A program made the translations under genes and the position numbers. A stretch of 64,000 nucleotides of DNA from Candidatus Saccharimonadales bacterium (lineage in GTDB: Bacteria > Patescibacteriota > Saccharimonadia > Saccharimonadales > JANWIN01), in NCBI GenBank assembly GCA_025449905.1, contig JANWIN010000012.1, positions 109,318-173,317 of the forward strand. Direction: 5' to 3'. Positions 533 through 48,829 of the stretch are shown here, one piece after another; position 1 is the stretch's first letter, and every line of letters starts with the position of its first letter. The notes beneath the pieces were generated by a model. The model was not told the DNA's origin. It saw nothing but the letters and a program-made list of their open reading frames with translations, and did no database searches.

Positions 533-1609
533 TTATTTATGTACTACAACTTTGGTGCCGATGGGTGCCCAGTAGTAAACCCACTGGGCTTCGGAGTTGA
601 TGATACCTAAGCAGCCGTGTGAGCTGTTAACGCTGCCAAAATAACTCAGTGGTCGCCAGTAATTGCCGTGAATGGCATCACTGCCATTGAAGTAACTAAC
701 CCATTCAACATCCGGCTGAAAATACTTAGTACCGTCTGCATTAAAGCCTTTCATATCCTGAATGCGCACTTTGGAATAAATACTAAAATCACCGGTAGCT
801 GTAGGTGTGGCTGGTGCACCGGCGGTAATTAGAAAAGTTTTAACTAGCTCGCCGTTTTCATATGCATACATCCGCTTGGTGCTAATATTAGCCTCCAGCA
901 ATTTATCGCCAAAACCATTAATAGCAATGCTGCTGAAGGCAATGTGATGGCTGGGAATGGTGAACTTTGTCTTGTCACCAATCAGCAAGAGCTTACTTAG
1001 CTTATTTACTACAGATGCATTAACATCCAGCGAAAAACCACTAACTCCTTGAACCAAAATTGTTTTAGCACCATCTGACGCGACCGAATAAATTTGCTCA
1101 TGCGGCGAGCGGGCATAGGCTTTAGCCAAATCATCTAAATAATGCCCCAAAGCCTTTTTATTTACGCTTATAATTACACCCTTTGCTTTAAACCATCTAC
1201 TTTTTACTTTAGTGCTAGCTAAAATTTTCGTATCGCCAAATTTAAGGGCGACTGACTGTCTTACATAACTTCTTAAACCTTTTGGCTTAACCGATTCTTG
1301 CACTGAGCTGCCAGTCTCTACTTGATTGCTGGTTTTAGACAATTGTTCGGCAGCAACAAAGGTGCCAAGCAGTACTACTAATGAGATGGCAAAATATAGT
1401 AGCTGTTTCTTATTAAAATTAAAGGGCTTAAAGAGCCACTTTTTACCCGCAAATGGGGCGCCGAAAACAACTAGACCAGATGTAGGTGCTGCGCTATTAG
1501 CTCGGAGGAGCTTAAAAGGAAAATCCACCGGTGCCTGAACCTTTGGACCGACGATATCGTTACCAACTAAAGCCAAAGAATGGCTAGACTTTTTGTTGTT
1601 TTTTCCCAT
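533..1609 (-). CDS. L,D-transpeptidase (YkuD-domain) with N-terminal membrane anchor
   Basis: The C-terminal domain carries IHG and SSHGCLGI, matching the YkuD catalytic SHGC(I/L)R-type motif. A TM segment LLYFAISLVVLLGTFVAA lies near the N-terminus. Confidence 0.8.
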   Translation of the reverse strand: MGKNNKKSSHSLALVGNDIVGPKVQAPVDFPFKLLRANSAAPTSGLVVFGAPFAGKKWLFKPFNFNKKQLLYFAISLVVLLGTFVAAEQLSKTSNQVETGSSVQESVKPKGLRSYVRQSVALKFGDTKILASTKVKSRWFKAKGVIISVNKKALGHYLDDLAKAYARSPHEQIYSVASDGAKTILVQGVSGFSLDVNASVVNKLSKLLLIGDKTKFTIPSHHIAFSSIAINGFGDKLLEANISTKRMYAYENGELVKTFLITAGAPATPTATGDFSIYSKVRIQDMKGFNADGTKYFQPDVEWVSYFNGSDAIHGNYWRPLSYFGSVNSSHGCLGIINSEAQWVYYWAPIGTKVVVHK

Positions 1610-2286: not shown

Positions 2287-3564
2287 ATGTACAATATCGT
2301 CATGCAGCAGGTAAACAATTTTTCTGAGGTTCATGAGGTTTTAGCTGGCTTTGTACCGCCGGCGCGTTCAATGCGGGCCAAATACAGCTTGGAAAGAATG
2401 CTCAAACTTATGGACGAATTGGGCAATCCGCAGGAGAGTTTTAAGACTATCCATGTGGCCGGCACGTCGGGGAAGACTTCAACCTGCTATTACATTGCCG
2501 CGCTTCTAGGAGCAACTGGTAAAAAAATTGGCGTGACCGTCTCGCCGCATATTGATGAAGTTAATGAGCGTCTGCAAATAAACCTGACCCCCCTGTCCGA
2601 ACAAGAATTTTGCCAAGAGCTGAATGAATTTCTAAAAATACTTAACAGGTTAAGCGTTAAGCCAACTTACTTTGAGCTATTAATAGCTTTTGCTTATTGG
2701 CAGTTCGCTAAACAAAAAGTTGACTATGCCGTCATTGAGGTTGGTCTGGGCGGCCTGCTGGATGGCACCAATGTTATTAATCGAGCTGATAAAGTTTGTG
2801 TTATTACTGATATCGGGCTAGATCATACCAGCGTACTGGGGAACACTGTAGAAAAAATAGCCGCTCAAAAAGCCGGCATCATACAATCCAAGAATCAAGT
2901 AATTATGAACGCCCAAGACCCGGAAATAATGACAGTGATAAAACAAAGGCAAGGTGAAAAACAAGCTAGTCTAATAATAGTTGAGACCGACGAAGCAATT
3001 ACGCAAAACGATATGCCGTGGTTTCAGCATAGAAATTGGCAGTTAGCCTATGCGGTTTATAAGTACGTCAGCAATCGCGATGGTTTGGAGGACTTAGATA
3101 CTAACCAAATTAATAAAGCTATGAAGACCTATATTCCGGCGCGGATGGAAATTGTTAATAAAAACGGACAGACCATCATTATGGACGGCGCCCATAACCC
3201 GCAGAAAGTTGGCGCACTAGTGCGCAGTCTGCAAAGTAAGTTTCCTAATCAAAAAATGCAGGTCGTGATGGGTTTGTTGAGCGACAAAGAAGTAAAAGGA
3301 GTTCTTGAACAGCTAAAACCAGTTACTAAATCTTTATATGCAACTTATTTTGATGCCGAACAAGATATGCCGCGCTCGGCAATCCAGCCAGCTGAAATAG
3401 CCGAGGCGGCGAAAGCGCTAGGCATTGAGGCTTTAGAAATTAAAGAGCCGGAAAAAGCATTTAAGGAGTCTCTTAAGACAAACGATTCGGTGTTGGTCGT
3501 TGGTTCATTTTTCTTGCTCAATCACATCAGACCAATACTTAAGCGTGATAACCTATTAGTATGA
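2287..3564 (+). CDS. folC: folylpolyglutamate synthase / dihydrofolate synthase (Mur-ligase family)
   Basis: P-loop HVAGTSGKTST, Mur-ligase central and C-terminal regions (DGAHNP), and a typical length. It overlaps the downstream DHFR gene by 4 nt. Confidence 0.85.
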   Translation: MYNIVMQQVNNFSEVHEVLAGFVPPARSMRAKYSLERMLKLMDELGNPQESFKTIHVAGTSGKTSTCYYIAALLGATGKKIGVTVSPHIDEVNERLQINLTPLSEQEFCQELNEFLKILNRLSVKPTYFELLIAFAYWQFAKQKVDYAVIEVGLGGLLDGTNVINRADKVCVITDIGLDHTSVLGNTVEKIAAQKAGIIQSKNQVIMNAQDPEIMTVIKQRQGEKQASLIIVETDEAITQNDMPWFQHRNWQLAYAVYKYVSNRDGLEDLDTNQINKAMKTYIPARMEIVNKNGQTIIMDGAHNPQKVGALVRSLQSKFPNQKMQVVMGLLSDKEVKGVLEQLKPVTKSLYATYFDAEQDMPRSAIQPAEIAEAAKALGIEALEIKEPEKAFKESLKTNDSVLVVGSFFLLNHIRPILKRDNLLV

Positions 3565-4043
3565 TTAGAGCCATTGTTGCAGCTGATGAAAAACGCGGTA
3601 TTGCCGATGACCATGGTATTCCCTGGCAGGGCAAAATACCATCGGATGTTAAGTATTACCGAGACAAAATAACCAGCGGCACGCTATTGATGGGCTATGG
3701 ACTCTATAAAGAACTCAGCCATCCGTACCCGGGCGGCGTTAACTATGTAGCGACAGACAAAAAAGAAGAGAAATTTCCAGATGGCTTTGAACCCGTTTAT
3801 GATGCCCGCGAATTTTTAAAAAAAGTTAAAGGTGACGCCTGGAATCTGGGTGGTGCAGGTATTATTGCCAGCACTTTTGATTTAATTGACGAACTTTACA
3901 TTACCCAACTGGAAGGTGATTTTCACTGCACCAAGTTCATACCTGAATACGAACAAGAATTTCAAAAAATCTCTGAATCTGAACCATTAACTGAAAACGC
4001 CATAACCTTTCGTTTTACGGTCTGGAAACGTAAAACTCGCTAG
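3561..4043 (+). CDS. folA: dihydrofolate reductase
   Basis: The N-terminus MIRAIVAADEKRGIADDHGIPW is DHFR-like, the length is 160 aa, and the ATGA overlap suggests translational coupling to folC. Confidence 0.75.
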   Translation: MIRAIVAADEKRGIADDHGIPWQGKIPSDVKYYRDKITSGTLLMGYGLYKELSHPYPGGVNYVATDKKEEKFPDGFEPVYDAREFLKKVKGDAWNLGGAGIIASTFDLIDELYITQLEGDFHCTKFIPEYEQEFQKISESEPLTENAITFRFTVWKRKTR

Positions 4044-5253: not shown

Positions 5254-5330
5254 GGGCCCATAGCTCAGCTGGTTAGAGCACCTGCCTCTTAAGCAGGGTG
5301 TCGAGGGTTCGAGTCCCTCTGGGCCCTCCA
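5254..5330 (+). tRNA. tRNA-Lys (anticodon CTT), CCA encoded
   Basis: Cloverleaf read by hand: acceptor GGGCCCA/TGGGCCC, D-arm GCTC-AGCTGGTTA-GAGC, anticodon arm CCTGC-CTCTTAA-GCAGG, T-arm GAGGG-TTCGAGT-CCCTC. Confidence 0.95.
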
Positions 5331-7327: not shown

Positions 7328-8125
7328 ATGAAAATACTGAACGGCAGTGAACTAGCAGGTTATATAAAAGAGCGGCAGGCTCGCGAAGTCCGCAGCTTGA
7401 TTCAAGCAAAGGGTATCAAACCTAAGCTAGCTATTGTTCAGGTTAAAGATGATCCAGTTATAAATACCTATGTTCGGCTAAAAAAAGCTTATGGGGCCGA
7501 TATTCAGATTGACGTTGATATTCATTTTATTTCTCAGGTTGAAATTGCAAAGAATTTGCAAAAACTAAATGAAGATAAATCTGTTCATGGCATCATTGTT
7601 CAACTGCCACTGATGGATACTAGCCAGACTGAAGAAATAGTTAATATGGTAGCACCCGAAAAAGATGTTGACGCGTTGGGCGCGCAAGCAAAGTTTGAAC
7701 CAGCTACGCCGATGGCTATAATGTGGCTGCTATCCGGTTATAACGTTGAGCTAAACGGCAAACAAATTTTATTAGTCGGCCGAGGAAAGTTAGTAGGGGC
7801 GCCATTAGAGAAAATACTAAAAGCTTCCGGCCACAAGGTTGAAGTTATTGACCGAGGCGCCAAAGATCTAGGCGACCATACTAAAAAAGCAGATATTGTT
7901 ATCACCGCGACTGGAAGTCCGGCCATTTTATATTCCGATATGATTAAAGAAAACGCCGTAGTAGTTGATGCTGGCGTAGCCAGTGAGTCTGGCAAAACCG
8001 TTGGCGATTTATCAGTAGATGTTTACGAGCGCGAGGATTTAACTATTACACCAAAGAAAGGTGGAGTAGGACCTCTGACGGTATGCGCACTGTTTGAGAA
8101 TACTATTAGAGCGGCTAGGAATTAA
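7328..8125 (+). CDS. folD: bifunctional methylenetetrahydrofolate dehydrogenase / methenyl-THF cyclohydrolase
   Basis: The N-terminus MKILNGSELAGYIKERQ, YVRLKKK-like region, GIIVQLPL and GRGKLVGAPL (NAD(P) site) are typical of FolD. Confidence 0.9.
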   Translation: MKILNGSELAGYIKERQAREVRSLIQAKGIKPKLAIVQVKDDPVINTYVRLKKAYGADIQIDVDIHFISQVEIAKNLQKLNEDKSVHGIIVQLPLMDTSQTEEIVNMVAPEKDVDALGAQAKFEPATPMAIMWLLSGYNVELNGKQILLVGRGKLVGAPLEKILKASGHKVEVIDRGAKDLGDHTKKADIVITATGSPAILYSDMIKENAVVVDAGVASESGKTVGDLSVDVYEREDLTITPKKGGVGPLTVCALFENTIRAARN

Positions 8126-9404
8126 AAACTGATTCAACAATTTTGAAAATTTCTTCTGGTATACTATTCGGCCCGAGTTTTTTATAGTCATAATCTTCTG
8201 GTAAATCAAAAACGTACTTATTAAGTTCTGGATACTTAGCTTGCGCTAGCTTCATTGCAGCGCGGCTTTCTTTAACCTCGCCGACGCAATCAAGCGGCTT
8301 ATGACCTTCAATGCCTAATAACTGGCGATAGGTTGACTCAAGTTCATTAGTAAGTAGCAGGTTTTTACCCCCAAATAAAGTCTCTAGCTCTTGTTGCTCG
8401 ACAAAAGGCGTCAAAATAAGAAAGGTGAAAGCGCACTTAGGGCATTCGCCACACCAAAAAATTTTGTCACTGCTGTGAATAAAAGCCCGGTTGCAAGAAC
8501 TAAATACCCTTTTGTATTTATTAAAACCAATTTTAGAAAATAATTCGGCAATTCTAACTTCGCTTAATGGTCTAAGCAGGGAATAGTAGCGTAAGTTATC
8601 ACCAAAGCAATGGCTTAAATATTGTTGGTAGTCCTTTTCGAATTCTAAAGATTTAGAGTACTGATGATTAATAGCCACTCCCTGATAGTGTAGATTCGGC
8701 TCACTGGCTGAACTTTCGTTGGAAACTACATTATCTTGGTAGCCACTTAATAATGCTACAATTGTGCCGACACAGGCAAAAATAGCCGAAATAGGGATAT
8801 GGCCGTTTAGAGCACCTTGCTTATTAAGCTCTAAAAGTTGCCTATCCCACTGACGTTCAACCCAAAAATGCTTGGTACCAATGGTTTGAACCAAAGGTTC
8901 AAGCTGCGAACGATGTGACAAACTCCAAGTAGCAACTTTGGGCTGATTCTTCAGCAGTTCGATGCTAACTAATGAATCTTTGCCACCGCCAATCCCGCTA
9001 AGCTGTCCTTCCCCTTCATTACTTAACATGTTAAGTGTCGAGTCACTATTAGTCGGAAAAACTATTACCGTATTCGGACTTAGCTTGTTTACGTATAAAA
9101 ACTCCCCTAGCCCCTTTTGATAAGTTTTGCTAAAAAAATCTGCGCTTGCTTGATCCAGATAACCTTTTTTTATTTCAATACCTGAGGGCATATAGGTTTT
9201 GTAGTATGAAACTCCGGCCATAAAAAATAAGGACTGAAAAGCTCGATCTAAAGCTTCTGTATTCATAGTTTTATAAAAATCAAAGTTGAACTGATAAGTT
9301 TCAGTAAAATTAAGCTGACTATCAAGACTATATTTTAGGGTTAAAGTTTTAGTAGCTTCCTCTAAACTATAATCCTCAAAAATAAAGTTTTGAAACTTAC
9401 TCAT
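8115..9404 (-). CDS. PP-loop ATPase-like protein coupled to murD; candidate MurL (UDP-MurNAc-L-Ala-L-Glu epimerase)
   Basis: SGIGGGKDS is a PP-loop-like motif (SGGxDS), and a C-terminal Cys cluster SSCNRAF...WCGECPKCAF is present. The start overlaps the murD stop by 4 nt (9401-9404). Confidence 0.5.
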   Translation of the reverse strand: MSKFQNFIFEDYSLEEATKTLTLKYSLDSQLNFTETYQFNFDFYKTMNTEALDRAFQSLFFMAGVSYYKTYMPSGIEIKKGYLDQASADFFSKTYQKGLGEFLYVNKLSPNTVIVFPTNSDSTLNMLSNEGEGQLSGIGGGKDSLVSIELLKNQPKVATWSLSHRSQLEPLVQTIGTKHFWVERQWDRQLLELNKQGALNGHIPISAIFACVGTIVALLSGYQDNVVSNESSASEPNLHYQGVAINHQYSKSLEFEKDYQQYLSHCFGDNLRYYSLLRPLSEVRIAELFSKIGFNKYKRVFSSCNRAFIHSSDKIFWCGECPKCAFTFLILTPFVEQQELETLFGGKNLLLTNELESTYRQLLGIEGHKPLDCVGEVKESRAAMKLAQAKYPELNKYVFDLPEDYDYKKLGPNSIPEEIFKIVESVFNS

Positions 9405-10702
9405 AACTTATTTACCGCTTCTCTAAATTGGTTACCACGCTCCTCAAAGTTTTTAAACATGTCAAGACTGGCAAAACCTGGCGATAAAACCACGGCGCCA
9501 CCTGTTATTGCTAAGTCACGGGCTTCTTTAACAATTTCGGACATAGTCCTACTAGTTGAAAGCTGATAGGCGGTAAAACCAGACTTGACTAGACTTTCCG
9601 ATACCCGCTTGGCTGAAGCCCCAATTAATAAAACTTTATGTACGGAACTACTATTTTTAATTTGTTCTGCAAGATTTTGTAGATTCAAGCCTCGCTCGAA
9701 GCCACCAATTATGATGACTTTTTGTTTTGGTATGGCATCAATAGCAGCAATCGTAGCCTCTGGACCAGAAGAGAAGGAGTCATTGTAATAGTCTACATCT
9801 TCAAAAGTCCGCACCAACTCTAGGCGGTTTGGCAGACCGCTAAATTCTGTGATGGCTTTTCTAAGAGCGTCGGGGTTGGGGCTGAGCTGCCACACTGCAG
9901 TCACCGCGGCACAAACATTTTGCCAGTTGTGCTTGCCGAGCAGTTTTATCTCGCTGATGTCGCAAATGGTGTGGCCTTCAATGACGACTTTATTTTCAAT
10001 AACGTCAGCGCCGGGCGTGTGCATATATGGGATCTTATGACCCTTGCTGACGCTGGCAATATGAGTTGAGTATTGATTTTGAGCGAAGTATATAGCAAAG
10101 TCGTCAACATTTTGATGAATGAAGAGCTGCTGCTTGGCGGTTATGTATTCGTTGACGTCAGCATGCCAATCCAAGTGCTCTTCAACAACCATTAGACAAA
10201 CGGCAACCGACGGCGAGTAGCGAAGATCAATAAGCTGAAAGTTGGCTAGTTCCAAGATAACCCAGTCGTCGGTTTGAATACTGGCTTTTAACATATCAAG
10301 TGGCGGTTTACCGATGTTGCCTCCTAGATGAACTTTTTTGCCTTCGGCTTCTAACATTTTGACAATCAGGGTTGAAGTTGTTCCTTTGCCTTTAGTACCA
10401 GTTACGCCAATGATATTTTTACTGGGACTAACCCGAAAAAATTCGTTAGTGACGCTGGTAACTTTTTTATAAATTTCCGCTGAATTAGCGGCAACAATAT
10501 CCGCCGGATGAACGATTGGTGAGCGAACAATAAGGTCAAACTGGTCAAGATTTTTTAAATGTTCTGGACCCAGCTGTTTTTGCACATCAGATGGTAGGTC
10601 TAGATTTTCATCTTGGTCACAAATAGTAACCTCGTTGCCATTTTTCCAATATTCATAGGCCGAGCGACCCTGCTTGCCAAAGCCCAGTATGGCGACTTTC
10701 AT
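9401..10702 (-). CDS. murD: UDP-N-acetylmuramoyl-L-alanine--glutamate ligase (MurD or MurD2)
   Basis: Rossmann-like N-terminus MKVAILGFGKQG and Mur-ligase P-loop GVTGTKGKGTTSTL, with a typical 433-aa length. Confidence 0.85.
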   Translation of the reverse strand: MKVAILGFGKQGRSAYEYWKNGNEVTICDQDENLDLPSDVQKQLGPEHLKNLDQFDLIVRSPIVHPADIVAANSAEIYKKVTSVTNEFFRVSPSKNIIGVTGTKGKGTTSTLIVKMLEAEGKKVHLGGNIGKPPLDMLKASIQTDDWVILELANFQLIDLRYSPSVAVCLMVVEEHLDWHADVNEYITAKQQLFIHQNVDDFAIYFAQNQYSTHIASVSKGHKIPYMHTPGADVIENKVVIEGHTICDISEIKLLGKHNWQNVCAAVTAVWQLSPNPDALRKAITEFSGLPNRLELVRTFEDVDYYNDSFSSGPEATIAAIDAIPKQKVIIIGGFERGLNLQNLAEQIKNSSSVHKVLLIGASAKRVSESLVKSGFTAYQLSTSRTMSEIVKEARDLAITGGAVVLSPGFASLDMFKNFEERGNQFREAVNKL

Positions 10703-10714
10703 CCCGTCAGAAAT

Positions 10715-10737
10715 CCAATCTTCTGCCAGAAGATTGG
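10715..10737 (-). terminator. perfect 11-bp-arm palindrome between the receiver gene and murD (terminator or attenuator candidate)
   Basis: CCAATCTTCTG-C-CAGAAGATTGG. It lies between the stop of the upstream minus-strand gene (10795) and the murD start (10702). Only a weak T-tract follows. Confidence 0.4.
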
Positions 10738-10794
10738 CAGATTTGATTCCTGATCAAATGCTTATTTCCTACGGGATTCATAACTGTTATTCTA

Positions 10795-11226
10795 TCAAGT
10801 TTGTGGAGGATTAGTTGGCGCTGGGTTGGGCGGAGCTGGCGGCGCGGTGTTTTGGCTTAATTGCTTCTTGACCAGTTCAGCCACTTGGCGGGGGGTCATA
10901 TCAGCTTTTAGAATAAAGGCGCTAACCCCTAGCTGTTTAATATTTTCTGGAACTTCCTGTTCGCCCATGTTGGTTAATATTACCACCTTGATGTTTTTGC
11001 CCCACGGCAGTTTGCGCAGTTCCCCCAACATAACGTCGCCGTTCATTTCCGGCATCATCAAATCAAGCAAAATAATATCGGGCCGCATTTTTTCAGCTAG
11101 GGCCAATCCTAACTTGCCATTTTCGGCAGTTTCAACTTCATAGCCATTAGCCTCGAACTTAATTCGATACATCTGGCTGATAGCCTGGTCATCCTCAATT
11201 ATTGCGATCTTTGGCACTGCGCTCAT
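10795..11226 (-). CDS. stand-alone response regulator receiver protein with Pro-rich tail
   Basis: CheY-like receiver: IAIIEDD, phospho-acceptor context DIILLDLMMPEMNG, and KVVILT. It has no output domain and ends in a PAPPNPAPTNPPQT tail. Confidence 0.85.
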   Translation of the reverse strand: MSAVPKIAIIEDDQAISQMYRIKFEANGYEVETAENGKLGLALAEKMRPDIILLDLMMPEMNGDVMLGELRKLPWGKNIKVVILTNMGEQEVPENIKQLGVSAFILKADMTPRQVAELVKKQLSQNTAPPAPPNPAPTNPPQT

Positions 11227-11315
11227 ATTACACCGCCGTAAAACGCTCGTCTAGGATAGCGGTTGTGTTTAATCTGGATTTTGCTATCATAAACTTGACT
11301 AGTTAAAATAAAGAT

Positions 11316-11789
11316 ATGGTTATACACATTGCAGCCGGTACAGGAACAGGGCCTACGAAAATGGCGGCCTTTGATGCGGCCCTACTTAAAGCCGGCATAG
11401 CCAACCATAACTTGATACGGCTTAGTTCAATAGTTCCGCCGGCAAGCGAAATCGCTGTGCATGATGGGCCGATAACAGAAAAACTTGGAGAATGGGGAGA
11501 CAGGCTATATATAGTAATGGCCGATATGCGGGTGGCCTCGCCAAACGTAGAAGCCTGGGCTGGCATAGGCTGGACGCAGGATAAAGAAACCGGCAAAGGA
11601 TTATTTGTCGAACACGAAGGCGCTAACGAAGAAACTGTTAAGCGAGATATTCAGCAAAGTCTTGAGGCCTTAATGAGAAATCGCAAAGTAGATTTTGGGC
11701 CTATAAGTATGAAGGTTGTGGGGAAGACTTGTCTGCATGAACCAGTTTGCGCATTGGTAATTGCGGCTTTTAAAGCCGAAGACTGGTAA
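11316..11789 (+). CDS. pdaD: pyruvoyl-dependent arginine decarboxylase
   Basis: AAGTGTGPTKMAAFDAALLKAGIANHNLIRLSSIVP matches the PvlArgDC family, including the Ser-Ser self-cleavage site. The length is 157 aa. Confidence 0.85.
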   Translation: MVIHIAAGTGTGPTKMAAFDAALLKAGIANHNLIRLSSIVPPASEIAVHDGPITEKLGEWGDRLYIVMADMRVASPNVEAWAGIGWTQDKETGKGLFVEHEGANEETVKRDIQQSLEALMRNRKVDFGPISMKVVGKTCLHEPVCALVIAAFKAEDW

Positions 11790-11857: not shown

Positions 11858-12757
11858 ATGGATTGGTTTTTACTAGCCCTACTTGCCCCGCTTTTTTTTG
11901 CCGTAGTAAATTTAATAGACGATAACCTAATTCATCATGTCTATCGGGGGCCTTATTTTGCGGTGATTATTTCGGGTTTGTTTGGTGCCATACCTTTAAT
12001 TAGCCTGCTTTTTAAAGAATTAGAACCGCTTTCTGCTAGCTTAGCAGTCGCGGGTATGACAGCCGGTTTTCTAACCGCCGTTTATTACTATTTTTATTTC
12101 AAGGCTTTAGAGGTTGAGTATCCATCGGTGGTTATTGCCATGTTTAGTCTAACACCGGCGACGGTGCCGATACTGGCTTACTTTTTCTTGGATGAACGAC
12201 TATCTTACATGCAGCTTCTCGGCTTCATGATAGTTTTACTAGCTTCCCTGGGACTTGCTTTAACAGAAGTTAAAAAGATGAAATTTACAAAAGCCTTAGT
12301 ACCAGTCCTGATTGCAGCCTCGATATTTGATGTTGTTGCCATACTCTCAAAATATACTTATGACCACACCACTTTTTATAACGGCTACATGCTTTTTAGC
12401 CTGGGCATGGGACTGGGCGCTCTGTTTTTCATGTTCATACTTAGGTATCTAAAGACTGAAAATGTTCTCAAGGACTTGAAGCGAAACTCATTTAAGATAA
12501 TAACTTTAATGGTTATTGCCGAGGCTATCGCTATTGCCGCTGAATTTACCCAAAACCTAGCTATTAGCCGCGGCCCGGTATCTCTAGTAAAAGTCATTGA
12601 AGGCATCCAGCCAATCTACGTACTACTCATAGCGCTAATTTTCTATCCGGTTGTTCCAAAATATTTCCGCGAAGCCAAAGAAGGCAACTTGGTAAAGAAA
12701 TTTTCACTTATGGCCATGATTGTTTTTGGTTTGTACCTGATCAGTACCACGGTCTAG
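11858..12757 (+). CDS. EamA/DMT-family transporter
   Basis: About 10 predicted TM helices in two similar halves, and a 299-aa length typical of DMT permeases. Confidence 0.7.
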   Translation: MDWFLLALLAPLFFAVVNLIDDNLIHHVYRGPYFAVIISGLFGAIPLISLLFKELEPLSASLAVAGMTAGFLTAVYYYFYFKALEVEYPSVVIAMFSLTPATVPILAYFFLDERLSYMQLLGFMIVLLASLGLALTEVKKMKFTKALVPVLIAASIFDVVAILSKYTYDHTTFYNGYMLFSLGMGLGALFFMFILRYLKTENVLKDLKRNSFKIITLMVIAEAIAIAAEFTQNLAISRGPVSLVKVIEGIQPIYVLLIALIFYPVVPKYFREAKEGNLVKKFSLMAMIVFGLYLISTTV

Positions 12758-13647
12758 ACCTTACTGGTCACAGTATATTTTTTTAAGAAAAACTCTGGGC
12801 GATAGGCTAATTTGGATTTCTTCAGTCGCTCAATGCCCAAATCTTGTTCCCAATTTAGATATTTGCACTCGTAATCTAGAAGTTTCTCGGCGGCTTTATA
12901 AGCCAGAAAAGTAGGAGTGTAAGCTGGCACGTGGCTGGCTTTTTCCAAGTGAGCAATAGCATAGTCGCTTGATAAAATCTCTTGAATAGAACAACCAATA
13001 ATTTTATCTTCTAAGCCGATAGTAATAAAAAGTAGATCAAGGCTAGCAGCATGAGAAAGTAGTCGTTTTAGCATGATACTTTCAGTGGCAGAATCGGCTG
13101 GTGATTGGTGGGCGATTTGAGCCCACTCTTCGAACAAGACTAGAATTTGTTCGGCCTGATGATGGGTCGGCACTTTAAAATGGTTTATTTGCAGATTGGT
13201 GGTTTGTTGCCGCTGGAAGGCATTTAGCTTATGTCTTATTTTTTTATATCTATCGCCTTCTAGTTTCATAAAATCGGCCAAATTATATATGTAGTCGTGA
13301 TTATTAAAATCTTCTTCGACCTTAAATCGAGTAGGATCTTTAATTGCTTGAACTGTAGTTTCAGGAACCATCTCTAACTTGTCGCTGTCAGCAAGCAGCT
13401 TGGCTAGCGAATTATCAATTTTGTTTTCACCAAGTAACGATGTCATCAGTTTGCCGCTAGCGTAGTGAGGTAGTTTAATTACCAGGTTGTCATTTAAAAG
13501 CGAAACTTTGGTTAAATCATCTGCATCCCACGTAAACAAACTAGTGAAGTTAAAATCTGAGTATGGGGGGAAATTTTTACTAAATTCGTCAATTTCTGCC
13601 TTATGGCTGATTTTAAGCTTAGAAAAAGCCGGATATTTTTTAATCAT
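12754..13647 (-). CDS. DUF2156-domain protein (MprF C-terminal-like, aminoacyl-tRNA-dependent transferase fold)
   Basis: Matches to the DUF2156 pattern: NFTSLFTWD, DYIYNLADFMKLEGDRYKKIRHKLNAF, and NWEQDLGIERLKKSKLAYRP. Confidence 0.65.
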   Translation of the reverse strand: MIKKYPAFSKLKISHKAEIDEFSKNFPPYSDFNFTSLFTWDADDLTKVSLLNDNLVIKLPHYASGKLMTSLLGENKIDNSLAKLLADSDKLEMVPETTVQAIKDPTRFKVEEDFNNHDYIYNLADFMKLEGDRYKKIRHKLNAFQRQQTTNLQINHFKVPTHHQAEQILVLFEEWAQIAHQSPADSATESIMLKRLLSHAASLDLLFITIGLEDKIIGCSIQEILSSDYAIAHLEKASHVPAYTPTFLAYKAAEKLLDYECKYLNWEQDLGIERLKKSKLAYRPEFFLKKYTVTSKV

Positions 13648-16646: not shown

Positions 16647-17696
16647 ATGACACATGCAAGTCCAGAAGTAGCAATCCAACCACACGTTGGCGAAACGCAA
16701 CTTCCTTTACCTGATCAAGCGCAATTAAATGCTTTTGACCGTGCTCGAGAATGGGCGCGTGGCAAATTACTGCCAATTGCCTTATCTGCAGGTCTAGCAA
16801 TAGGCGCAGTTGCTTGCGGCGAAAGCGGTGCTGATACAACCAAAGCTCATGAAAAAGACCCCATTGGTTTAGCTCCGACTGAAGCATGTCCCACAAGCTG
16901 GGAAATACACGATCTTAACAATGCTGGCAACAGGTTATTTGCAGATGGTATTCCTAAAATTTGGACTGCCGAGACTGACGATCAAGCACGAGAAGCTATG
17001 GATGATGTTATGTCAGCAGCACAAGCCGACCCTGAAATTTTTGCTGGATTTATAAAAGCAACTATAGGCGAAGATATTGATCCTACTACCTTAGCTGATG
17101 CAGAGCGCAAGTGTGCTACTCCATTGGCTCAGCAAAAAACAACCCAAGTAGTTACATATCTTGCTCAGAGTAGAATGTCACCGGATCAAGCTCCGGCTAA
17201 CGGCTTAAACAGTGGCGCAAACGCTGCAACTGGTGAAGTAACCCAAGCTTATCAGCCTGGAATTAGCGGTGATCGCAAAGCAATTAGGATTGTGGGTCCA
17301 GACGGTAAAGAGTTTTGGGTAATGGCCCGGTGCGGAAACATAGTTGTTCTTACGCCAATATTTCCTCCTGGCCCAACCGAAGAACAAGAAACCCCTCCTA
17401 CAACTACAACCATTCCTAACACTCCAACAACAACTGTCCCTGGCCCTAAACCACCTACAGACTTTGAATATCAGCAGAACCAGACACCTGCTCGACAAAA
17501 CCCTCAAAATAATACTACTTCCGGTGTGCCGGTTGGCCCTACCCCAGGTGCTCCTAGTGTAGCCCCTCCTCCTGCAGGTCGCCCAGAAGGTGACCCTAAT
17601 GGTGGTAGCGGAGATGGCGGCGCAACACCTGAAGGCCCTGTGGATCACACACATGGCGGCGATGAAACTAGTGGAACGGTTCCAACACCAGCTTAA
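16647..17696 (+). CDS. secreted Pro/Thr-rich protein, possible lipoprotein
   Basis: The hydrophobic segment LLPIALSAGLAIGAVAC ends in Cys (lipobox-like). The C-terminal third is low-complexity P/T/G-rich. Confidence 0.6.
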   Translation: MTHASPEVAIQPHVGETQLPLPDQAQLNAFDRAREWARGKLLPIALSAGLAIGAVACGESGADTTKAHEKDPIGLAPTEACPTSWEIHDLNNAGNRLFADGIPKIWTAETDDQAREAMDDVMSAAQADPEIFAGFIKATIGEDIDPTTLADAERKCATPLAQQKTTQVVTYLAQSRMSPDQAPANGLNSGANAATGEVTQAYQPGISGDRKAIRIVGPDGKEFWVMARCGNIVVLTPIFPPGPTEEQETPPTTTTIPNTPTTTVPGPKPPTDFEYQQNQTPARQNPQNNTTSGVPVGPTPGAPSVAPPPAGRPEGDPNGGSGDGGATPEGPVDHTHGGDETSGTVPTPA

Positions 17697-19426: not shown

Positions 19427-19501
19427 GGCCTCATCGTCTAACGGTTAGGACACCAGGTTTTCATCCTGGCAATAGGGGTTCGATTCCCCTTGAGGTCACC
19501 A
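19427..19501 (+). tRNA. tRNA-Glu (anticodon TTC), CCA encoded
   Basis: Acceptor GGCCTCA/TGAGGTC (one G-U pair), D-arm GTCT-AACGGTTA-GGAC, anticodon arm CCAGG-TTTTCAT-CCTGG, T-arm AGGGG-TTCGATT-CCCCT. Confidence 0.95.
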
Positions 19502-22312: not shown

Positions 22313-23122
22313 ATGAGCGATAGAACTCTTATAGTGGGCAACTGGAAGATGAATCTTAATACTTCCGAGGCTAGCGTGCTACTGCATCGGCTGGAGGAGA
22401 GGATTAAGGCCCATCAAGATATAGAAGTGGTTTTAGCGCCTAGCACGTTAGTTATTCAACCGTTGTCGCTACAAATTGACCGCCACAAATTCCGGCTGGC
22501 GGCTCAAAACGCTTTTTTCAAAGACGAAGGGCCTTTTACTGGCGAAGTGTCATTTACTCAACTGCGCGACCTTGTCCACTACGTCATTATCGGTCACAGC
22601 GAGCGGCGCCTGCATTTTGAGGAAAGCCTAGGTATTGTGCGTGATAAAGTTGCCGCCAGTTTTAGGAACGATATTATTCCTATTTTATGTGTCGGCGAGA
22701 CTCAAAGTGAACGCCGAGCCGGTGAGACGAGGCAGGTACTACACGATCAAGTCACTAGCGCCCTTAGTAACTTAACGGCGAATGAAGTCGAGGATATGGT
22801 TATTGCCTACGAGCCAGTCTGGGCCATAAGTACTTTTGGCGGTATTTTAGCTAAGCCTGATGAAGTAAAAAAAGAGATGGATTTTATTAGGCATCAGGTA
22901 AGGGAGCTATATGGTGCCAAAGCTGCCAAAAGAGTAAGAGTGCTTTATGGCGGCAGCGTTGATGATCAAATCGTCGGCGGTTATTTAGAAATTGATGGCT
23001 GCGACGGTGTTTTAGTGGGCGCAGCCAGCCTTAATTATCATAAATTTGCTGGTATTGTCGACCGCGCCTATCATATCAACCGTCAACCAAAAGAAAAACC
23101 TAATGAACCCGACGAAAAATAA
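22313..23122 (+). CDS. tpiA: triosephosphate isomerase
   Basis: VGNWKMN, IIGHSERR, and AYEPVWAI (catalytic Glu context). It has a Lys/Pro-rich C-terminal extension. Confidence 0.9.
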   Translation: MSDRTLIVGNWKMNLNTSEASVLLHRLEERIKAHQDIEVVLAPSTLVIQPLSLQIDRHKFRLAAQNAFFKDEGPFTGEVSFTQLRDLVHYVIIGHSERRLHFEESLGIVRDKVAASFRNDIIPILCVGETQSERRAGETRQVLHDQVTSALSNLTANEVEDMVIAYEPVWAISTFGGILAKPDEVKKEMDFIRHQVRELYGAKAAKRVRVLYGGSVDDQIVGGYLEIDGCDGVLVGAASLNYHKFAGIVDRAYHINRQPKEKPNEPDEK

Positions 23123-23636
23123 CCCTGAGCCCACTGAACCTCAAAAAGTAGTTGTTGAAAAGCGGGGCATGCTGCCGCAAAAATCGGTTAAGAGTGGTGA
23201 TAAAGAAAAACCGATTGCCGGCGGCGACCTACAAGATGGTGAAGAAAAACAGCCCTTGGCCGATCATAAGCTCAAGCTTACACCCAATAAAAATGCTCCG
23301 ACTGTAAAAGCTGCTCCGGCTGTGGCTAAAGTTAAGCCCGAACTTGAAACTGACGAAGCAACCTCTCCAGACTCAAGTAAAAAAGCCTCCACTAAAGCAG
23401 CACCGCCAAAACCCGATCCCGAAGAAGCGGCTAAAAAGGAAGCTATCCAAAAACTGATTGAAGATAAAAAATATGCTGTGCCGATTACCCACAATAAAAG
23501 CCATCGCTCAACTCGTCAGTTTGCGATAACTTTTGTATTAGTTTTAGTCGTCGGGCTACTTGCTATAGACTTATTAATAGACGCGGGAATAATAAAAAGC
23601 GGCATAAAACCACCAATTAATTTAATAAATAACTAA
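23103..23636 (+). CDS. hypothetical Lys/Pro/Ala-rich protein with C-terminal TM anchor
   Basis: The track ORF starts at 23046, but the ATG at 23103 (MNPTKNN...) is the more plausible start and overlaps the tpiA end by 20 nt. The C-terminal helix is FAITFVLVLVVGLLAIDLLI. Confidence 0.5.
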   Translation: MNPTKNNPEPTEPQKVVVEKRGMLPQKSVKSGDKEKPIAGGDLQDGEEKQPLADHKLKLTPNKNAPTVKAAPAVAKVKPELETDEATSPDSSKKASTKAAPPKPDPEEAAKKEAIQKLIEDKKYAVPITHNKSHRSTRQFAITFVLVLVVGLLAIDLLIDAGIIKSGIKPPINLINN

Positions 23637-23644
23637 GGAATAAA

Positions 23645-24388
23645 ATGAAAAAACTAAACCAGCAAGGTATAGCCCATCTAACAATCATCGGACTAATTTT
23701 AATAATTAGCATTATAGGTTTTGTTGGCTGGCGAGTTTGGGATGTTAGAAAAGACGCAGATCAAAAATTTAATGATGGCAAAACTAGTCAAACTAGCCCC
23801 CAAAATCTTATTTATAATGAAAACGGTTCGTCAACTGTAAAAGGCGAACTTATAATTTACAAGAACAGCAACAGGGGGTTTAAGTTTAGTTATCCGAAAG
23901 TGTACGGAAATCTTAAAGTTGTAGACCAAGAAGATAGCAGCATCTTACTTTTCCCCAGTCTTTCAACTGGTAGTCCTAAAGTTCCAATATATGAAGGCAT
24001 TGAAGGTTCAATCGCTGTAAGCACGGGCGATAAAAACAAAGCAACTTACACTAGAAAATATGGTCCTTCCGTGAAGTTAACTAACGGCAAATGGATTATT
24101 ATGGAAACTAACGAGGGTGATCCAGTAAAAGAAAAAGTTGGCGATACATATAAAGACTATAAATCTCAGAAGAACGGAAATTTAACTATTTATACTTTTG
24201 AATCAGGTGACGAAGGCGCTATTTGGTACAACCTAACGTTTATTGCCAATGGCTATATGAGCAATATTGGTCTACCATATTTTGATACAGGCAATGGTTT
24301 AGGAGATGGTCCGCTGAAGTTGAATGATCCGAAACCGTATAACGAATTATATAAACAAGTAATAAATAGCATCGTAACTTACCCTTAA
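23645..24388 (+). CDS. hypothetical membrane-anchored extracytoplasmic protein
   Basis: N-terminal TM IAHLTIIGLILIISIIGFVGW followed by a ~200-aa domain with no recognisable motif. Confidence 0.5.
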   Translation: MKKLNQQGIAHLTIIGLILIISIIGFVGWRVWDVRKDADQKFNDGKTSQTSPQNLIYNENGSSTVKGELIIYKNSNRGFKFSYPKVYGNLKVVDQEDSSILLFPSLSTGSPKVPIYEGIEGSIAVSTGDKNKATYTRKYGPSVKLTNGKWIIMETNEGDPVKEKVGDTYKDYKSQKNGNLTIYTFESGDEGAIWYNLTFIANGYMSNIGLPYFDTGNGLGDGPLKLNDPKPYNELYKQVINSIVTYP

Positions 24389-26581: not shown

Positions 26582-27823
26582 ATGAAATTCAAAAAACAAG
26601 CCCGACAGTATAAAAAAGAAGCTAAAGATTACGCTCGGATGCAAAAACGCCGAGCTCGCAATATTCAGGGCCACCCGTTTGTTGTCCCGGTACTAACTTT
26701 TTTGTTTTTGTTTTTCGTATCAATGATAGCTTTTATTGGCCTTAACGCTCAAACCATCGGTGCTGGTGATGCCCATGTTGTTCAGTTTTCCATCGACGGC
26801 GAAAAACAAGTTCTACCGACCCGGGCCAGCACGGTTGGCAAATTGCTAAATCGTCTTGAAATAAAAGTTGGCAAGCATGATGTTATCGAGCCGCCGCTGG
26901 ACACGCCGATTTTAGAAGATAATTTCAAAATCAATCTTTACCGCGCCAAGCCGGTGATTGTAGTCGAGGGCAAAAAAGAAGTTTCAATGCTAACAGCCAT
27001 AACTAGTCCCAAAAATGTTGTGACTAAAGCCGGTTTTAAATTATTTCCTGAAGATAGAGTGGTCTTAGCCAGTGCTGATGACGTTTTAAACGAAGGCGTT
27101 ATTGGGCACAAAATTATTATTGAGCATGCCACGCCTGTAAAACTAAATCTTTTTGGGCGCATGCTTAGTCTTAGAACCCATTCTAAAACTGCTCGAGAAC
27201 TTTTAAAAGAACGCGGCGTAGACGTCTCGGGAGTTAATGTCTTTCCTTCTATCAGTGCAAATCTAAAAAAAAATTCGGTGGTGTTTGTGACCAAACCGGG
27301 AATTGTTGTTAAATTCCAAGAAGTTAGTCTGCCGTTTGGCCAAAGTTTTGTTGATGATTATAGTCTGCCCTACGGCGTCACCAAAGTACGCAGCGCCGGT
27401 GAAAATGGTAAAAAGGTAATTGTATTTTCGGCACCAAAAAAGCATCCTGAACAAAAACACAAGCTTCAAGAAGTTTTGGTTAGTAGGCCGGTAAACGCGG
27501 TTATCGCCCGCGGGCGCCGCATCAATACTTCAAGTGTTTCTGGCGATCGGGCCGCTTTAATGGCCGCCGCCGGCATTTCATCTGGCGATTATTACGCCGT
27601 TGACTTTATTATTAGTCACGAATCCGGCTGGCGTCCTGGCGCTCTTAGCGGTAGTGGCTGCGCAGGGCTGGGCCAGGCTTGCCCGGGCTCAAAAGTTATA
27701 AGTGCTTGCCCTAACTGGTCTAACAATGCTGTTTGCCAGCTGCGCTTCTTTAGCGGTTATGCCCAGAGGTATGGGGGATGGCAGCAGGCGTATTTTGTGT
27801 GGCAAAATCAGGGCTGGTGGTGA
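26582..27823 (+). CDS. DUF348/G5-domain cell-wall protein with C-terminal transglycosylase-like domain
   Basis: An N-terminal TM is followed by DUF348-like repeats and a G5-like region (VRSAGENGKKV). The C-terminal ISHESGWRPGA...GLGQ...GWW resembles the Apf/SLT-like muralytic domain. Confidence 0.7.
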   Translation: MKFKKQARQYKKEAKDYARMQKRRARNIQGHPFVVPVLTFLFLFFVSMIAFIGLNAQTIGAGDAHVVQFSIDGEKQVLPTRASTVGKLLNRLEIKVGKHDVIEPPLDTPILEDNFKINLYRAKPVIVVEGKKEVSMLTAITSPKNVVTKAGFKLFPEDRVVLASADDVLNEGVIGHKIIIEHATPVKLNLFGRMLSLRTHSKTARELLKERGVDVSGVNVFPSISANLKKNSVVFVTKPGIVVKFQEVSLPFGQSFVDDYSLPYGVTKVRSAGENGKKVIVFSAPKKHPEQKHKLQEVLVSRPVNAVIARGRRINTSSVSGDRAALMAAAGISSGDYYAVDFIISHESGWRPGALSGSGCAGLGQACPGSKVISACPNWSNNAVCQLRFFSGYAQRYGGWQQAYFVWQNQGWW

Positions 27824-30763: not shown

Positions 30764-31178
30764 GGGGCTGAATTAAGCTTGACGTTAGTACTTTATCGGT
30801 TAGATCAGCAGGTCGCTTGTCAGCGTTATAGGCAAAACCCAAGTAATTGCAAAATTTCTTGACCGCGTAGCTACTGCTTTCGAGAACGCACGTGCAAACG
30901 TTGCTTCTCTCTTTAGCAATCTAGCTTACGCACCAATTGCAGCTTAATATTATCTGCAATCGCGCCTAACATGACATCAGATAACGCTAGTGCGTGTCAT
31001 ATCATCTGGTTGCGCAGACTTTACGGTCCGTAAATCTGCTAAGACTTTAGGACACACAGAGAATGACTTTTTGGCTGTTTATCGGTCATTCTTTGTTCAA
31101 AGCTAAATAGCCTAAACCTGTAGGAAGACTAACTAATAAACTAAACGGACGCCGGAGCATTACCGGCCAGCTCCACCA
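30764..31178 (+). ncRNA. ssrA: tmRNA (transfer-messenger RNA)
   Basis: The 5' GGGGCTG pairs with the 3' CAGCTCC-A-CCA, including the G3:U70 alanine identity pair. The 3' end GGACGCCGGAGCATTACCGGCCAGCTCCACCA aligns with E. coli GGACGCGGGTTCAACTCCCGCCAGCTCCACCA. An internal tag frame ends ...LAYAPIAA-TAA (stop 30945-30947). Confidence 0.9.
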
Positions 31179-47551: not shown

Positions 47552-48829
47552 GTGTTAAATAAGATAAAGAATCTTAAGGGACTTAAGCCCAAAAAAAACA
47601 GCAAACAGTATTTAGTGGCACTGGACATTGGAACTGAAAATGTTAAGGCCTTAGTGGCCGAAGCCAAAGATAATACAATTGAGATTATCGGTGTTGGTCG
47701 AGCTCATCAAGGATTATCGGACATGCAGGCTGGCGCCATTTCGGACATTGCCGGGGTAGTCAAAAACTGTGACGATGCCTTGAATCAAGCCGAACAGCAA
47801 GCTGGTGCCAGTGCCCGCCCGGCAGTTATTGGCATCGCTGGTGAGTTAGTAAAAGGTACAACTACCACTGTGCGGGTGCGTCGCAAGGATCCAGCTAAAG
47901 AACTGGATTTTGACGAAGTTGAGCGAATTATCACTTTGGTCCAAAAACGTGCCCAAGAGCGAGCCAAACAACAATTAGTCTGGGAGTTGGGTGGCAAAGA
48001 AGTTGAAACCCGACTGGTTAATAGCGCGCTAGTAAATATTGAAATTGATGATTATGCAGTTACCAATCCGGTCGGTTTTAAGGGCAAGGACGTGGTTGTC
48101 CAGTTGTATACGGCCTTTGCGCCGATGATACATATTGGCGCGTTGGAGCGCACCGCTAAAGAACTAGATTTAGATTTGTTAGCCGTAGCCGCCGAACCTT
48201 TTGCCGTGGCTCGCTCGGTAGTTGGCAATGACCCAAATAAAGCGATGAGTGCTGTTTTGATGGACGTCGGCGGCGGAACAACCGACATAGCAGTTATTAA
48301 TGAAGGCGGCGTGCAAGGTACAAAAATGTTTGGCATTGGCGGCCGGGCTTTTACACGCGCGGTTGAGCGCGACCTTGGGGTTAATTTTGATTCAGCCGAA
48401 CAGATGAAAATAGGCCTATCCACCAACCAAGCACCCCGAGCACAAATTCCATCAATTGAAGCGGCGCTTCGCAAAACCTTGGAAGTTTGGGCCAGCGGTG
48501 TATCTTTAGCCCTCGGCGAGTTTACCCAACTCGATAATCTACCCAATAAATTACTGCTCTGCGGTGGCGGCTCCTCACTGGAAATGTTGATGCACAAGCT
48601 AAACGAGGCCAGCTGGTCACATGAATTACCTTTTACCCAAAAACCATCGGTCCAGCATATTAAGCCCGAAGAAGTCTTGGGCATTGTTGATAAAACCGGC
48701 CACGTTGCCGACCATACCTTTATCACCGCTATGGGCCTGTTACGTGTTGGACTAGACACCCTGCAACAGGATGAAGAGGTTGAAGGAGATTCAATTCGTG
48801 AGAAAATAGATAGATTGCTAAGAGTATAA
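47552..48829 (+). CDS. ftsA: actin-like ATPase, FtsA-like cell-division protein
   Basis: Phosphate-1 VALDIGTENVKA, phosphate-2 DVGGGTTDIAVI, and adenosine motif LCGGGS. GTG start. Confidence 0.7.
   Translation: MLNKIKNLKGLKPKKNSKQYLVALDIGTENVKALVAEAKDNTIEIIGVGRAHQGLSDMQAGAISDIAGVVKNCDDALNQAEQQAGASARPAVIGIAGELVKGTTTTVRVRRKDPAKELDFDEVERIITLVQKRAQERAKQQLVWELGGKEVETRLVNSALVNIEIDDYAVTNPVGFKGKDVVVQLYTAFAPMIHIGALERTAKELDLDLLAVAAEPFAVARSVVGNDPNKAMSAVLMDVGGGTTDIAVINEGGVQGTKMFGIGGRAFTRAVERDLGVNFDSAEQMKIGLSTNQAPRAQIPSIEAALRKTLEVWASGVSLALGEFTQLDNLPNKLLLCGGGSSLEMLMHKLNEASWSHELPFTQKPSVQHIKPEEVLGIVDKTGHVADHTFITAMGLLRVGLDTLQQDEEVEGDSIREKIDRLLRV

Follow-up and report, generated by a model that had tools for sequence, protein, structure and literature searches.

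How a member of the Saccharimonadia might obtain the D-glutamate (D-Glu) of its peptidoglycan is the question raised by two overlapping genes of Candidatus Saccharimonadales bacterium (Saccharimonadia; TM7; Candidate Phyla Radiation (CPR)/Patescibacteria). The stretch of DNA analysed, here called the window, comprises 64,000 nt of this organism, and all coordinates refer to it. At 8115-10702, on the minus strand, a gene for a MurD-type ligase runs into a gene for a 429-aa protein, and an earlier sequence-only reading had put the two forward as candidates for MurD2 and MurL, which in Xanthomonas add L-glutamate (L-Glu) to the peptidoglycan precursor and then epimerise it, replacing the glutamate racemase MurI. 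That proposal is supported by membership of the MurL family, by the specificity residues of the ligase, by its grouping in a neighbour-joining (NJ) tree and by the conserved linkage of the two genes. With a probability of roughly 85%, the pair is judged from its sequence to be a translationally coupled MurD2-MurL unit, that is, the alternative early peptidoglycan step known from Xanthomonas oryzae, whose enzymes are classified as EC 6.3.2.53 (MurD2) and EC 5.1.1.23 (MurL).

The X. oryzae proteins MurD2 (XOO_1320) and MurL (XOO_1319) were the first to be described, by Feng et al. in 2017, as reviewed (PMC8788868, PMC5808125). The pathway is already known, and Pfam and JGI already recognise MurL of this lineage; what is new is a member in a lineage, Saccharimonadia/CPR, beyond the published distribution. 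The results that reach further than the locus are the breadth of the pathway, especially in the CPR, a candidate signature of L-Glu ligases at positions 319 and 348 (Escherichia coli numbering) and a predicted QueC-like core in MurL.

Family and fold of the 429-residue protein

Both genes, murD2 (9401-10702; 433 aa) and murL (8115-9404; 429 aa), lie on the minus strand and are coupled by an ATGA stop/start overlap at 9401-9404. At the junction AAG TTA TGA / ATG AGT AAG, the TGA of murD2 and the ATG of murL share 4 nt, so that the coordinates, strand and overlap noted in the sequence-only reading are all confirmed. The 4-nt overlap recurs in other Saccharimonadia contigs (L004, L005), which repeat the layout of the window: a response-regulator gene followed by murD and murL, and then a convergent folD. 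One Saccharimonadia contig with this layout is 1.1 Mb long.

The 429-aa protein matches the NCBIfam MurL model NF041275 over residues 4-387 (E=3.1e-99, 332.5 bits), and a database protein 100% identical to it (P0001) carries the Pfam domains MurL_N (PF26299) and MurL_epimerase_C (PF26298) in its precomputed annotation; the Pfam-A copy used for our scans gave no match to the protein, both families being evidently newer than that copy. In BLASTP, MurL of Micromonospora gifhornensis aligns over 402 residues with 37% identity (E=5e-83), and MurL orthologs from this genus have been validated in vitro (PMC8788868). An alignment of 84 MurLs from the genome survey described below, including Xanthomonadales and Micromonospora sequences, contains 32 invariant residues, among them G140, G141, K142, D143, R184, H202, H247, R278, C304, C321 and C373, and all 32 are present in the window protein. 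Its nearest homologs (the top 120, 62-74% identical) are named Candidatus Saccharimonadales or Saccharibacteria, and several Saccharimonadia homologs bear the JGI name 'UDP-N-acetyl-alpha-D-muramoyl-L-alanyl-L-glutamate epimerase'. NCBI calls some homologs 'hypothetical' or 'endonuclease domain-containing protein' (P0130, P0279, P0293, P0307, P0384). The likeness to MurL, which the sequence-only reading had put forward as a family-level guess, is strong against models and individual sequences alike; at the level of families MurL alone was matched, no other characterised PP-loop family being found. No Xanthomonadales MurL was among the top 150 family representatives; those of Arenimonas and Pseudolysobacter were reached via P0177 and represent the order here, the X. 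oryzae sequences themselves lying outside the comparison.

Other features of the protein are less favourable to this assignment. Its 332.5 bits fall below the equivalog cutoff of NF041275 (700 bits), the Saccharimonadia MurLs form a long branch of their own with 34-42% identity to every other group, and the C-terminal ~40 residues are unmatched by the Xanthomonadales profile. Such features would suit a Saccharimonadia clade that is homologous to the known pair and has drifted to another substrate, be it a different amino acid at position 2 of the stem, another nucleotide-sugar peptide or a recycling intermediate. The cutoff, however, marks a taxon and not the function, being tuned to Xanthomonadales, since the other non-Xanthomonadales representatives tested all scored under it as well (303-571 bits). 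Retention of all 32 invariant residues argues against drift, as do the identity of the top 120 homologs and the conserved synteny in L004 and L005; the high conservation of the pair across Saccharimonadia looks like that of an essential housekeeping step.

The structure of the protein was approached through AlphaFold models. The full-length model (mean predicted local distance difference test score (pLDDT) 94.8, predicted template modelling score 0.93) shows an N-terminal domain, an alpha/beta domain in the middle and helices in the C-terminal part. The N-terminal domain (~residues 1-110; 9075-9404) is built of a beta-sheet and helices, coincides with Pfam MurL_N and holds the invariant residues G64, Y67, K69, G98, E101 and N106; no structural relative of it was identified. 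Searched with Foldseek against the PDB, the full-length model gave nothing at E<=1e-3, and the partial matches of highest probability, none of them significant, were GMP synthase and LarE. A model of residues 120-345 (pLDDT 90.3), in contrast to the full-length one, matched Bacillus subtilis QueC (3bl5_A) best, with E=2.5e-7, probability 1.00 and template modelling scores of 0.62/0.71, the superposition running over 217 aligned columns on a chain of 195 residues at 18% identity. The matches that followed were ATP-pyrophosphatase domains of GMP synthase, LarE and NAD+ synthetase, all of them PP-loop ATP pyrophosphatases, with which the core shares a Rossmann-like alpha/beta fold. On these grounds a QueC-like PP-loop core is placed at ~residues 130-335 (8400-9017), and the earlier suggestion of a PP-loop enzyme holds. 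Sequence comparison is less telling: a PDB search with the single protein returned only noise (naphthalene dioxygenase, E=0.14), the MurL family profile gave a marginal match to the PP-loop protein TtuA (E=0.019), and its hhalign alignment with a single E. coli QueC, although co-linear with the structural match, is not significant alone (E=0.033), which counts against the QueC relationship.

In the model, the core motif GGGKDS (residues 139-144; 8973-8990) follows strand 134-137 and leads into helix 142-151, which is where a PP-loop canonically lies; its counterparts in the alignments are SGGKDS in TtuA and SGGQDS in E. coli QueC, the first Ser of SGGxDS being replaced by Gly throughout the MurL family. 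G140, G141, K142 and D143 are invariant in the 84 MurLs, and G139 and S144 are at least 95% conserved. The longer motif SGIGGGKDS proposed in the sequence-only reading is present at 136-144 and does contain the PP-loop, but its 'SGI' is not conserved (family consensus VPVGGGKDS). The Cys cluster WCGECPKC named there is likewise present (317-324) and was drawn too small: the cluster is C304-x13-C318-x2-C321-x2-C324 (8433-8495), with each Cys invariant or at least 95% conserved and co-linear, in the weak hhalign alignment, with the C-x8-C-x2-C-x2-C of E. coli QueC. It is a probable metal site. A fifth invariant Cys, C373, lies in KPxxCVGE, within the C-terminal motif KPLDCVGEVKE (8268-8300), in which P370, V374, G375 and E379 are also invariant; by its conservation it is a candidate for the catalytic base or thiol, as the invariant H202 and H247 are for the base. 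QueC itself works by turning a carboxylate into an acyl-adenylate, and zinc is bound at its Cys cluster.

The nearness of the core to QueC, like the endonuclease label of some homologs, would also be expected if an ordinary D-Glu-adding MurD stood beside an unrelated PP-loop enzyme, of a tRNA-modification or QueC-like kind, with a superficial likeness to MurL. The QueC match is nevertheless confined to the core, MurL having extra N- and C-terminal domains, and the matches to NF041275, the two Pfam MurL domains and Micromonospora MurL all speak against such a neighbour. The likeness between MurL and QueC is better taken, as far as the models go, as one of fold and mechanism than of family membership.

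Linkage and distribution of MurL and MurD

The MurL family comprises at least 6,793 homologs at E<=1e-5, in 2,414 clusters at 50% identity. A survey of one genome per GTDB species yielded at least 591 loci, and the 80 best came from a broad set of lineages. In the CPR these were Saccharimonadia, Peribacteria/Peregrinibacteria, Gracilibacteria, Moraniibacteriota, Uhrbacteria, Falkowbacteria, Woesebacteria and metagenome-assembled genomes (MAGs) labelled Parcubacteria/Patescibacteria. Alphaproteobacteria were represented by Emcibacter, Stellaceae and Acetobacteraceae, Gammaproteobacteria by Lysobacterales, Dokdonella and Marinicella, and Micromonosporaceae by Micromonospora, Actinoplanes and Rugosimonospora, with further loci in a Chloroflexia MAG, a Weeksellaceae MAG (Bacteroidota) and a Solirubrobacteraceae MAG.

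In 83 of 85 loci, MurD was either a neighbour of MurL or fused to it. The order murL>murD on the same strand prevailed (47/85), and murD>murL on the same strand was seen in 13, all of Saccharimonadia type; this inversion relative to nearly all other lineages is a further point in favour of a drifted Saccharimonadia pair. Fusions with MurL in front of MurD accounted for 12 loci, all from the CPR (L016, L021, L038, L039, L043, L049-L051, L061, L078, L079, L083), and in 11 loci, from Micromonospora and Actinoplanes, the two genes lay on opposite strands. MurL stood without MurD in two loci, for one of which the contig was too short for a decision. Among the 150 best family representatives, 19 were fusions, in both orders, with polypeptides of ~800-910 aa: MurD-MurL in P0122, P0126, P0139 and P0175, and MurL-MurD in P0145, P0164, P0191, P0262 and 11 others. 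Such fusions suggest that the L-Glu intermediate is channelled between MurD2 and MurL. Because the same overlap recurs in Saccharimonadia and MurD is adjacent or fused in nearly all loci, the arrangement seen in the window is not due to chance.

In several lineages murL and murD, separate or fused, stand where the dcw cluster canonically has murD, in the order mraY>murL>murD>ftsW>murG (a gammaproteobacterial MAG, Rugosimonospora and a Patescibacteria fusion) or in the same slot with mraY undetected (Weeksellaceae, Woesebacteria); the loci are L036, L040, L070, L072 and L078, and also L049, L051 and L079. There, the MurL-linked ligase is therefore the MurD of the pathway and not an accessory paralog. 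The Saccharimonadia pair lies away from any dcw genes.

Three loci were unusual. L067, from a MAG labelled Dichelobacter nodosus, has MurL with no MurD within ~10 kb downstream. MurL and MurD of L032 (Gracilibacteria) are ~1.3 kb apart; Gracilibacteria use an alternative genetic code, so the gene calls made there with translation table 11 may be broken. In L049, labelled uncultured Candidatus Saccharibacteria, a MurL-MurD fusion lies between murE and murC, and its MurL groups with Uhrbacteria/Moranbacteria, outside the Saccharimonadia clade, which reflects either a loose taxonomic label or gene transfer.

The published range covers Xanthomonadales genera, three alphaproteobacterial genera and four Micromonosporaceae genera, with orthologs of 'low similarity' in a fungus, cyanobacteria and an amoeba, and the CPR is unmentioned (PMC8788868, PMC5808125). 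Literature searches returned nothing relevant that linked MurL, MurD2, murI or murD to Saccharibacteria/Patescibacteria, or MurL to the PP-loop. The pathway is far more widespread, especially in the CPR, than these reviews report. It has been described as limited to relatively few genera and proposed as a narrow-spectrum antibiotic target (PMC8788868); with ~2,400 clusters at 50% identity, in a family that extends over many CPR lineages and the other groups listed above, the premise of narrowness needs revising.

Specificity determinants of the ligase

The window ligase passes the Pfam cutoffs of Mur_ligase_M and Mur_ligase_C, MurD-like_N scoring under its own, and keeps the Mur ligase catalytic residues K106, N129, E151, H176, K190 and D308. 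Its P-loop reads GTKGKGT (10385-10399, residues ~102-108), with Gly, and not Ser/Thr, immediately after the catalytic Lys, where E. coli has GSNGKST. Against the canonical murD model TIGR01087 it reaches 329.7 bits, well above the cutoff of 211.95, and is for that reason likely to be named a D-glutamate ligase by automatic annotation. The score favours an ordinary MurD next to an unrelated PP-loop enzyme; the ligase halves of the MurD-MurL fusions pass TIGR01087 too, however, so the model is blind to the difference between D-Glu and L-Glu ligases.

The residues that distinguish the two enzymes have been reviewed by Ogasawara and Dairi (PMC8788868): E197, R358, P433 and F435 of X. oryzae MurD2 correspond to D182, K348, A414 and L416 of E. 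coli MurD. The MurD2 double mutant E197D/R358K switches completely to D-Glu, P433A and F435L leave stereospecificity unchanged, and E. coli MurD K319T gains acceptance of L-Glu (PMC8788868). By alignment, the window ligase has Glu175 (codon 10178-10180, minus strand, as for those that follow) at the place of E. coli D182 and MurD2 E197, Arg337 (9692-9694) at that of K348 and R358, and Phe310 (9773-9775) at that of K319. Glu, Arg and a residue other than Lys at 182, 348 and 319 match the E197/R358 determinants and the effect of K319T, which argues for a MurD2.

These positions were compared between MurL-linked ligases (19 MurD-MurL fusions, and the MurDs that adjoin MurL in 85 loci) and five canonical MurDs with solved structures, from E. 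coli, Pseudomonas aeruginosa, Acinetobacter baumannii, Thermotoga maritima and Streptococcus agalactiae. At position 319, Lys occurs in all five canonical enzymes and in none of 98 MurL-linked ones, which have Ile (63), Leu (17), Phe (15), Asn (2) or Tyr (1). Arg occupies position 348 in 97 of 98 MurL-linked ligases, against Lys in four of the five canonical MurDs, and Glu occupies position 182 in 85 of 101 and in no canonical enzyme. Saccharimonadia ligases are uniform in having Glu, Phe (one Tyr) and Arg at 182, 319 and 348. Position 319 (Lys versus Ile/Leu/Phe) combined with Arg348 may thus offer a simple sequence discriminator between L-Glu and D-Glu ligases. Glu at position 182 was dropped as a diagnostic in its own right, 15 of 101 MurL-linked ligases having Asp there and the Streptococcus MurD Thr.

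The NJ tree, a distance method applied with four full-length canonical sequences, separates the canonical MurDs from the window ligase and all MurL-linked MurDs in 287 of 300 bootstraps and unites the window ligase with the MurD>MurL fusions in 298 of 300; its identity with the ligase half of one of these, P0122, is 54%. The choice between MurD and MurD2, on which the sequence-only reading had made its case depend, therefore falls on the side of the MurL-linked ligases, with the specificity residues in agreement.

Besides the TIGR01087 score, three observations weigh against a MurD2 identity. The canonical sample of five is small, the window ligase is about equally far (28-30% identity) from E. 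coli MurD and from Xanthomonadales MurD2, and it has Ala411 and Leu413 at E. coli positions 414 and 416, not the Pro and Phe of X. oryzae 433 and 435. Ala at 414 is shared by 12 of 96 MurL-linked MurDs, and since P433A and F435L left stereospecificity unchanged, Pro433 and Phe435 are not functionally defining. The same Ala in place of Pro at 414, found in most Saccharimonadia members, and Phe in place of Ile/Leu at 319 could also be read as signs of a drifted substrate. Set against them are the full complement of Mur ligase catalytic residues and the experimentally defined Glu/Arg determinants of L-Glu use, and a change of substrate in this clade is accordingly considered improbable. An ordinary MurD with an unrelated neighbour is hardly credible: Lys319 is absent, the MurD2 determinants are present and the two enzymes occur fused in both orders, so that this explanation is effectively refuted.

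Proposed route, D-Glu supply and related systems

If the pair is MurD2-MurL, the ligase would first join L-Glu to the cell-wall precursor, forming ADP and an acyl-phosphate intermediate as Mur ligases do. MurL would then bind ATP in its QueC-like PP-loop domain and adenylate the alpha-carboxylate of the terminal L-Glu, acidifying the C-alpha proton; the stereocentre would be inverted to D-Glu and the adenylate hydrolysed, and MurE would go on to extend the stem peptide. Both the ATGA overlap of the window and the fusions in other CPR would serve to co-ordinate the two enzymes, and would probably ease the transfer of the L-Glu intermediate from one to the other. In X. oryzae, MurL uses one ATP, forms AMP and works in the L-to-D direction only, adenylation of the alpha-carboxylate being a hypothesis of the reviews, which also state that MurL 'lacks known conserved domains' (PMC8788868, PMC5808125). 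The PP-loop core provides a structural basis for this hypothesis, and a concrete one, and adenylation in the window protein would take place at its PP-loop. L-Glu specificity, the ATP-to-AMP stoichiometry and one-way epimerisation are ascribed to the window pair by analogy with X. oryzae MurD2/MurL.

Whether the pair is the sole source of D-Glu depends on what else the genome encodes. None of the 57 open reading frames of at least 150 aa in the window, all scanned with Pfam, had an Asp/Glu racemase (murI) or class-IV aminotransferase domain, and phmmer with the window MurD found no second MurD there, K319-type included. An E. coli MurI probe had no homolog in 1.45 Mb of MurL-flanking DNA, 269 kb of it Saccharimonadia-type, which is a weak negative, as these flanks are a fraction of each genome. 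A genuine MurD2-MurL pair could accordingly coexist with MurI or a D-amino-acid aminotransferase and be redundant, conditional or a back-up, an arrangement regarded as unlikely, though by no means negligible. In its favour, and against an exclusive role for the pair, the view of D-Glu genes in this lineage extends over the 64-kb window and ~205 kb of related Saccharimonadia flanks, which is part of a genome, the identical database MurL alone being recorded on a contig of 185 kb, and a 2024 paper by Penalver et al., going by its title, reports glutamate racemase activity in Ca. Saccharimonas aalborgensis; MurI may occur in some Saccharibacteria, with or without MurL. On the other side stand the empty searches and the consideration that a ligase bearing the L-Glu signature could make little of free D-Glu, unless the cell also had another MurD of the K319 type. 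Moreover, the organisms reviewed as having MurD2/MurL are without genes for D-Glu formation (PMC8788868). We infer that MurD2-MurL may be the organism's only route to D-Glu.

Mis-annotation of MurD2/MurL is likely to be systematic, and reconstructions of Saccharibacteria/CPR metabolism would then score the supply of D-Glu as missing; recognising the pair closes this gap without a host-supplied D-amino acid. A broader proposition, at somewhat less than even odds, is twofold. Much of the CPR/Patescibacteria (the lineages behind this being Saccharimonadia, Peribacteria, Gracilibacteria, Moranbacteria, Uhrbacteria, Falkowbacteria, Woesebacteria and Parcubacteria) would obtain D-Glu mainly through MurD2-MurL, a route that may be ancient, and not through MurI; and MurL would be an adenylating enzyme derived from QueC, in which the catalytic Cys/His is distinct from a Cys4 metal site. 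Were the first part true, the absence of murI from such genomes would not amount to an incomplete peptidoglycan pathway; were the second true, a one-way epimerase driven by ATP would for the first time have a structural explanation.

Upstream of the pair lies its conserved neighbour, a response-regulator gene (10795-11226, minus strand; Pfam Response_reg) found in the same place in L004 and L005 and probably outside the MurD2-MurL pathway. In the 92-nt gap between it and murD2, a hairpin with an 8-bp stem (TCTGCCAGAAGATTGGCAGA, plus strand) at 10722-10741 may be a terminator or attenuator of the response-regulator gene; promoter and terminator scans of 7900-11500 showed no enrichment over shuffled sequence. 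On the other side, folD (7328-8125, plus strand) converges on murL, their 3' ends sharing 11 nt; it is a near neighbour of the pair in L004 and convergent and overlapping in L005. A FolC-like gene (2287-3564) and a dihydrofolate reductase gene (3561-4043), overlapping by 4 nt, and a gene for a stand-alone LPG_synthase_C protein (12754-13647, minus strand), corresponding to the C-terminal part of aminoacyl-phosphatidylglycerol synthase without the membrane flippase part, are near the pair both here and in L004; the latter protein might transfer aminoacyl groups from tRNA to a lipid or to a precursor of the cell wall. Further envelope genes at 533-1609 (minus strand), 26582-27823, 47552-48829, 50901-51947 and 51993-53153 encode a YkuD L,D-transpeptidase with a peptidoglycan-binding domain, a G5/DUF348 protein, an FtsA-like protein, YceG/MltG and a LysM+CHAP hydrolase, which fits a peptidoglycan-containing organism. 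Open reading frames of 554, 349, 196 and 247 aa at 48831-50495, 16647-17696 and 23046-24388 (all plus strand) had no Pfam match, the 554-aa one following directly on the FtsA-like gene. The window also holds a tmRNA gene (30764-31178, plus strand; Rfam RF00023, 63.4 bits) and tRNA genes at 5254-5327 and 19427-19498 (both plus strand).

Compared with known systems, the pair shares with that of X. oryzae the physical linkage of the two families, the Glu/Arg determinants of the ligase and the invariant MurL core with GGGKDS and the Cys cluster. It departs from it in its Saccharimonadia/CPR host, outside the published distribution, and in having Ala/Leu for Pro/Phe at 414/416 and Phe for Ile at 319 (E. 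coli numbering). Identity with gammaproteobacterial proteins, Xanthomonadales included, is 35-39% for MurL and about 28-29% for MurD. The order also differs: murD2 precedes murL with a 4-nt overlap in the window, whereas murL precedes murD2 in Arenimonas and Pseudolysobacter (L002, L003). In these two genera, murL-murD2 lies directly downstream of a fused aspartokinase/diaminopimelate-decarboxylase (lysA) gene, an arrangement that links D-Glu incorporation with diaminopimelate/lysine metabolism.

With the Micromonospora/Salinispora pairs, whose orthologs have been confirmed in vitro (PMC8788868), the window shares the 402-residue MurL alignment and, in the Micromonospora MurD, the Glu, Arg and non-Lys residues at 182, 348 and 319; the Micromonospora and Actinoplanes genes, however, are adjacent on opposite strands, while those of the window are co-directional and overlapping. 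The fusions, in MurD-MurL order in P0122 and P0126 and in MurL-MurD order in many CPR, resemble the window pair in that its ligase falls in the clade of the former and shares Phe at 319 with them, but in the window the two enzymes are polypeptides of their own, with the ATGA overlap as their sole coupling. In the comparison with QueC (7-cyano-7-deazaguanine synthase), the MurL core (~130-335) superposes on the whole QueC chain, with the PP-loop motif and, in the weak sequence alignment, a C-xn-C-x2-C-x2-C pattern aligned; MurL differs in having GGGKDS and not SGGxDS, in the domains added at its N-terminus (~110 aa) and C-terminus (~85 aa) and in the outcome of the reaction, epimerisation as opposed to nitrile formation. 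From the canonical route through MurD and MurI, finally, the pair retains the three-domain Mur ligase architecture, the catalytic residues and a passing TIGR01087 score, and it is set apart from it by a ligase that lacks K319, has Glu/Arg in place of Asp/Lys at 182/348 and is coupled to MurL.

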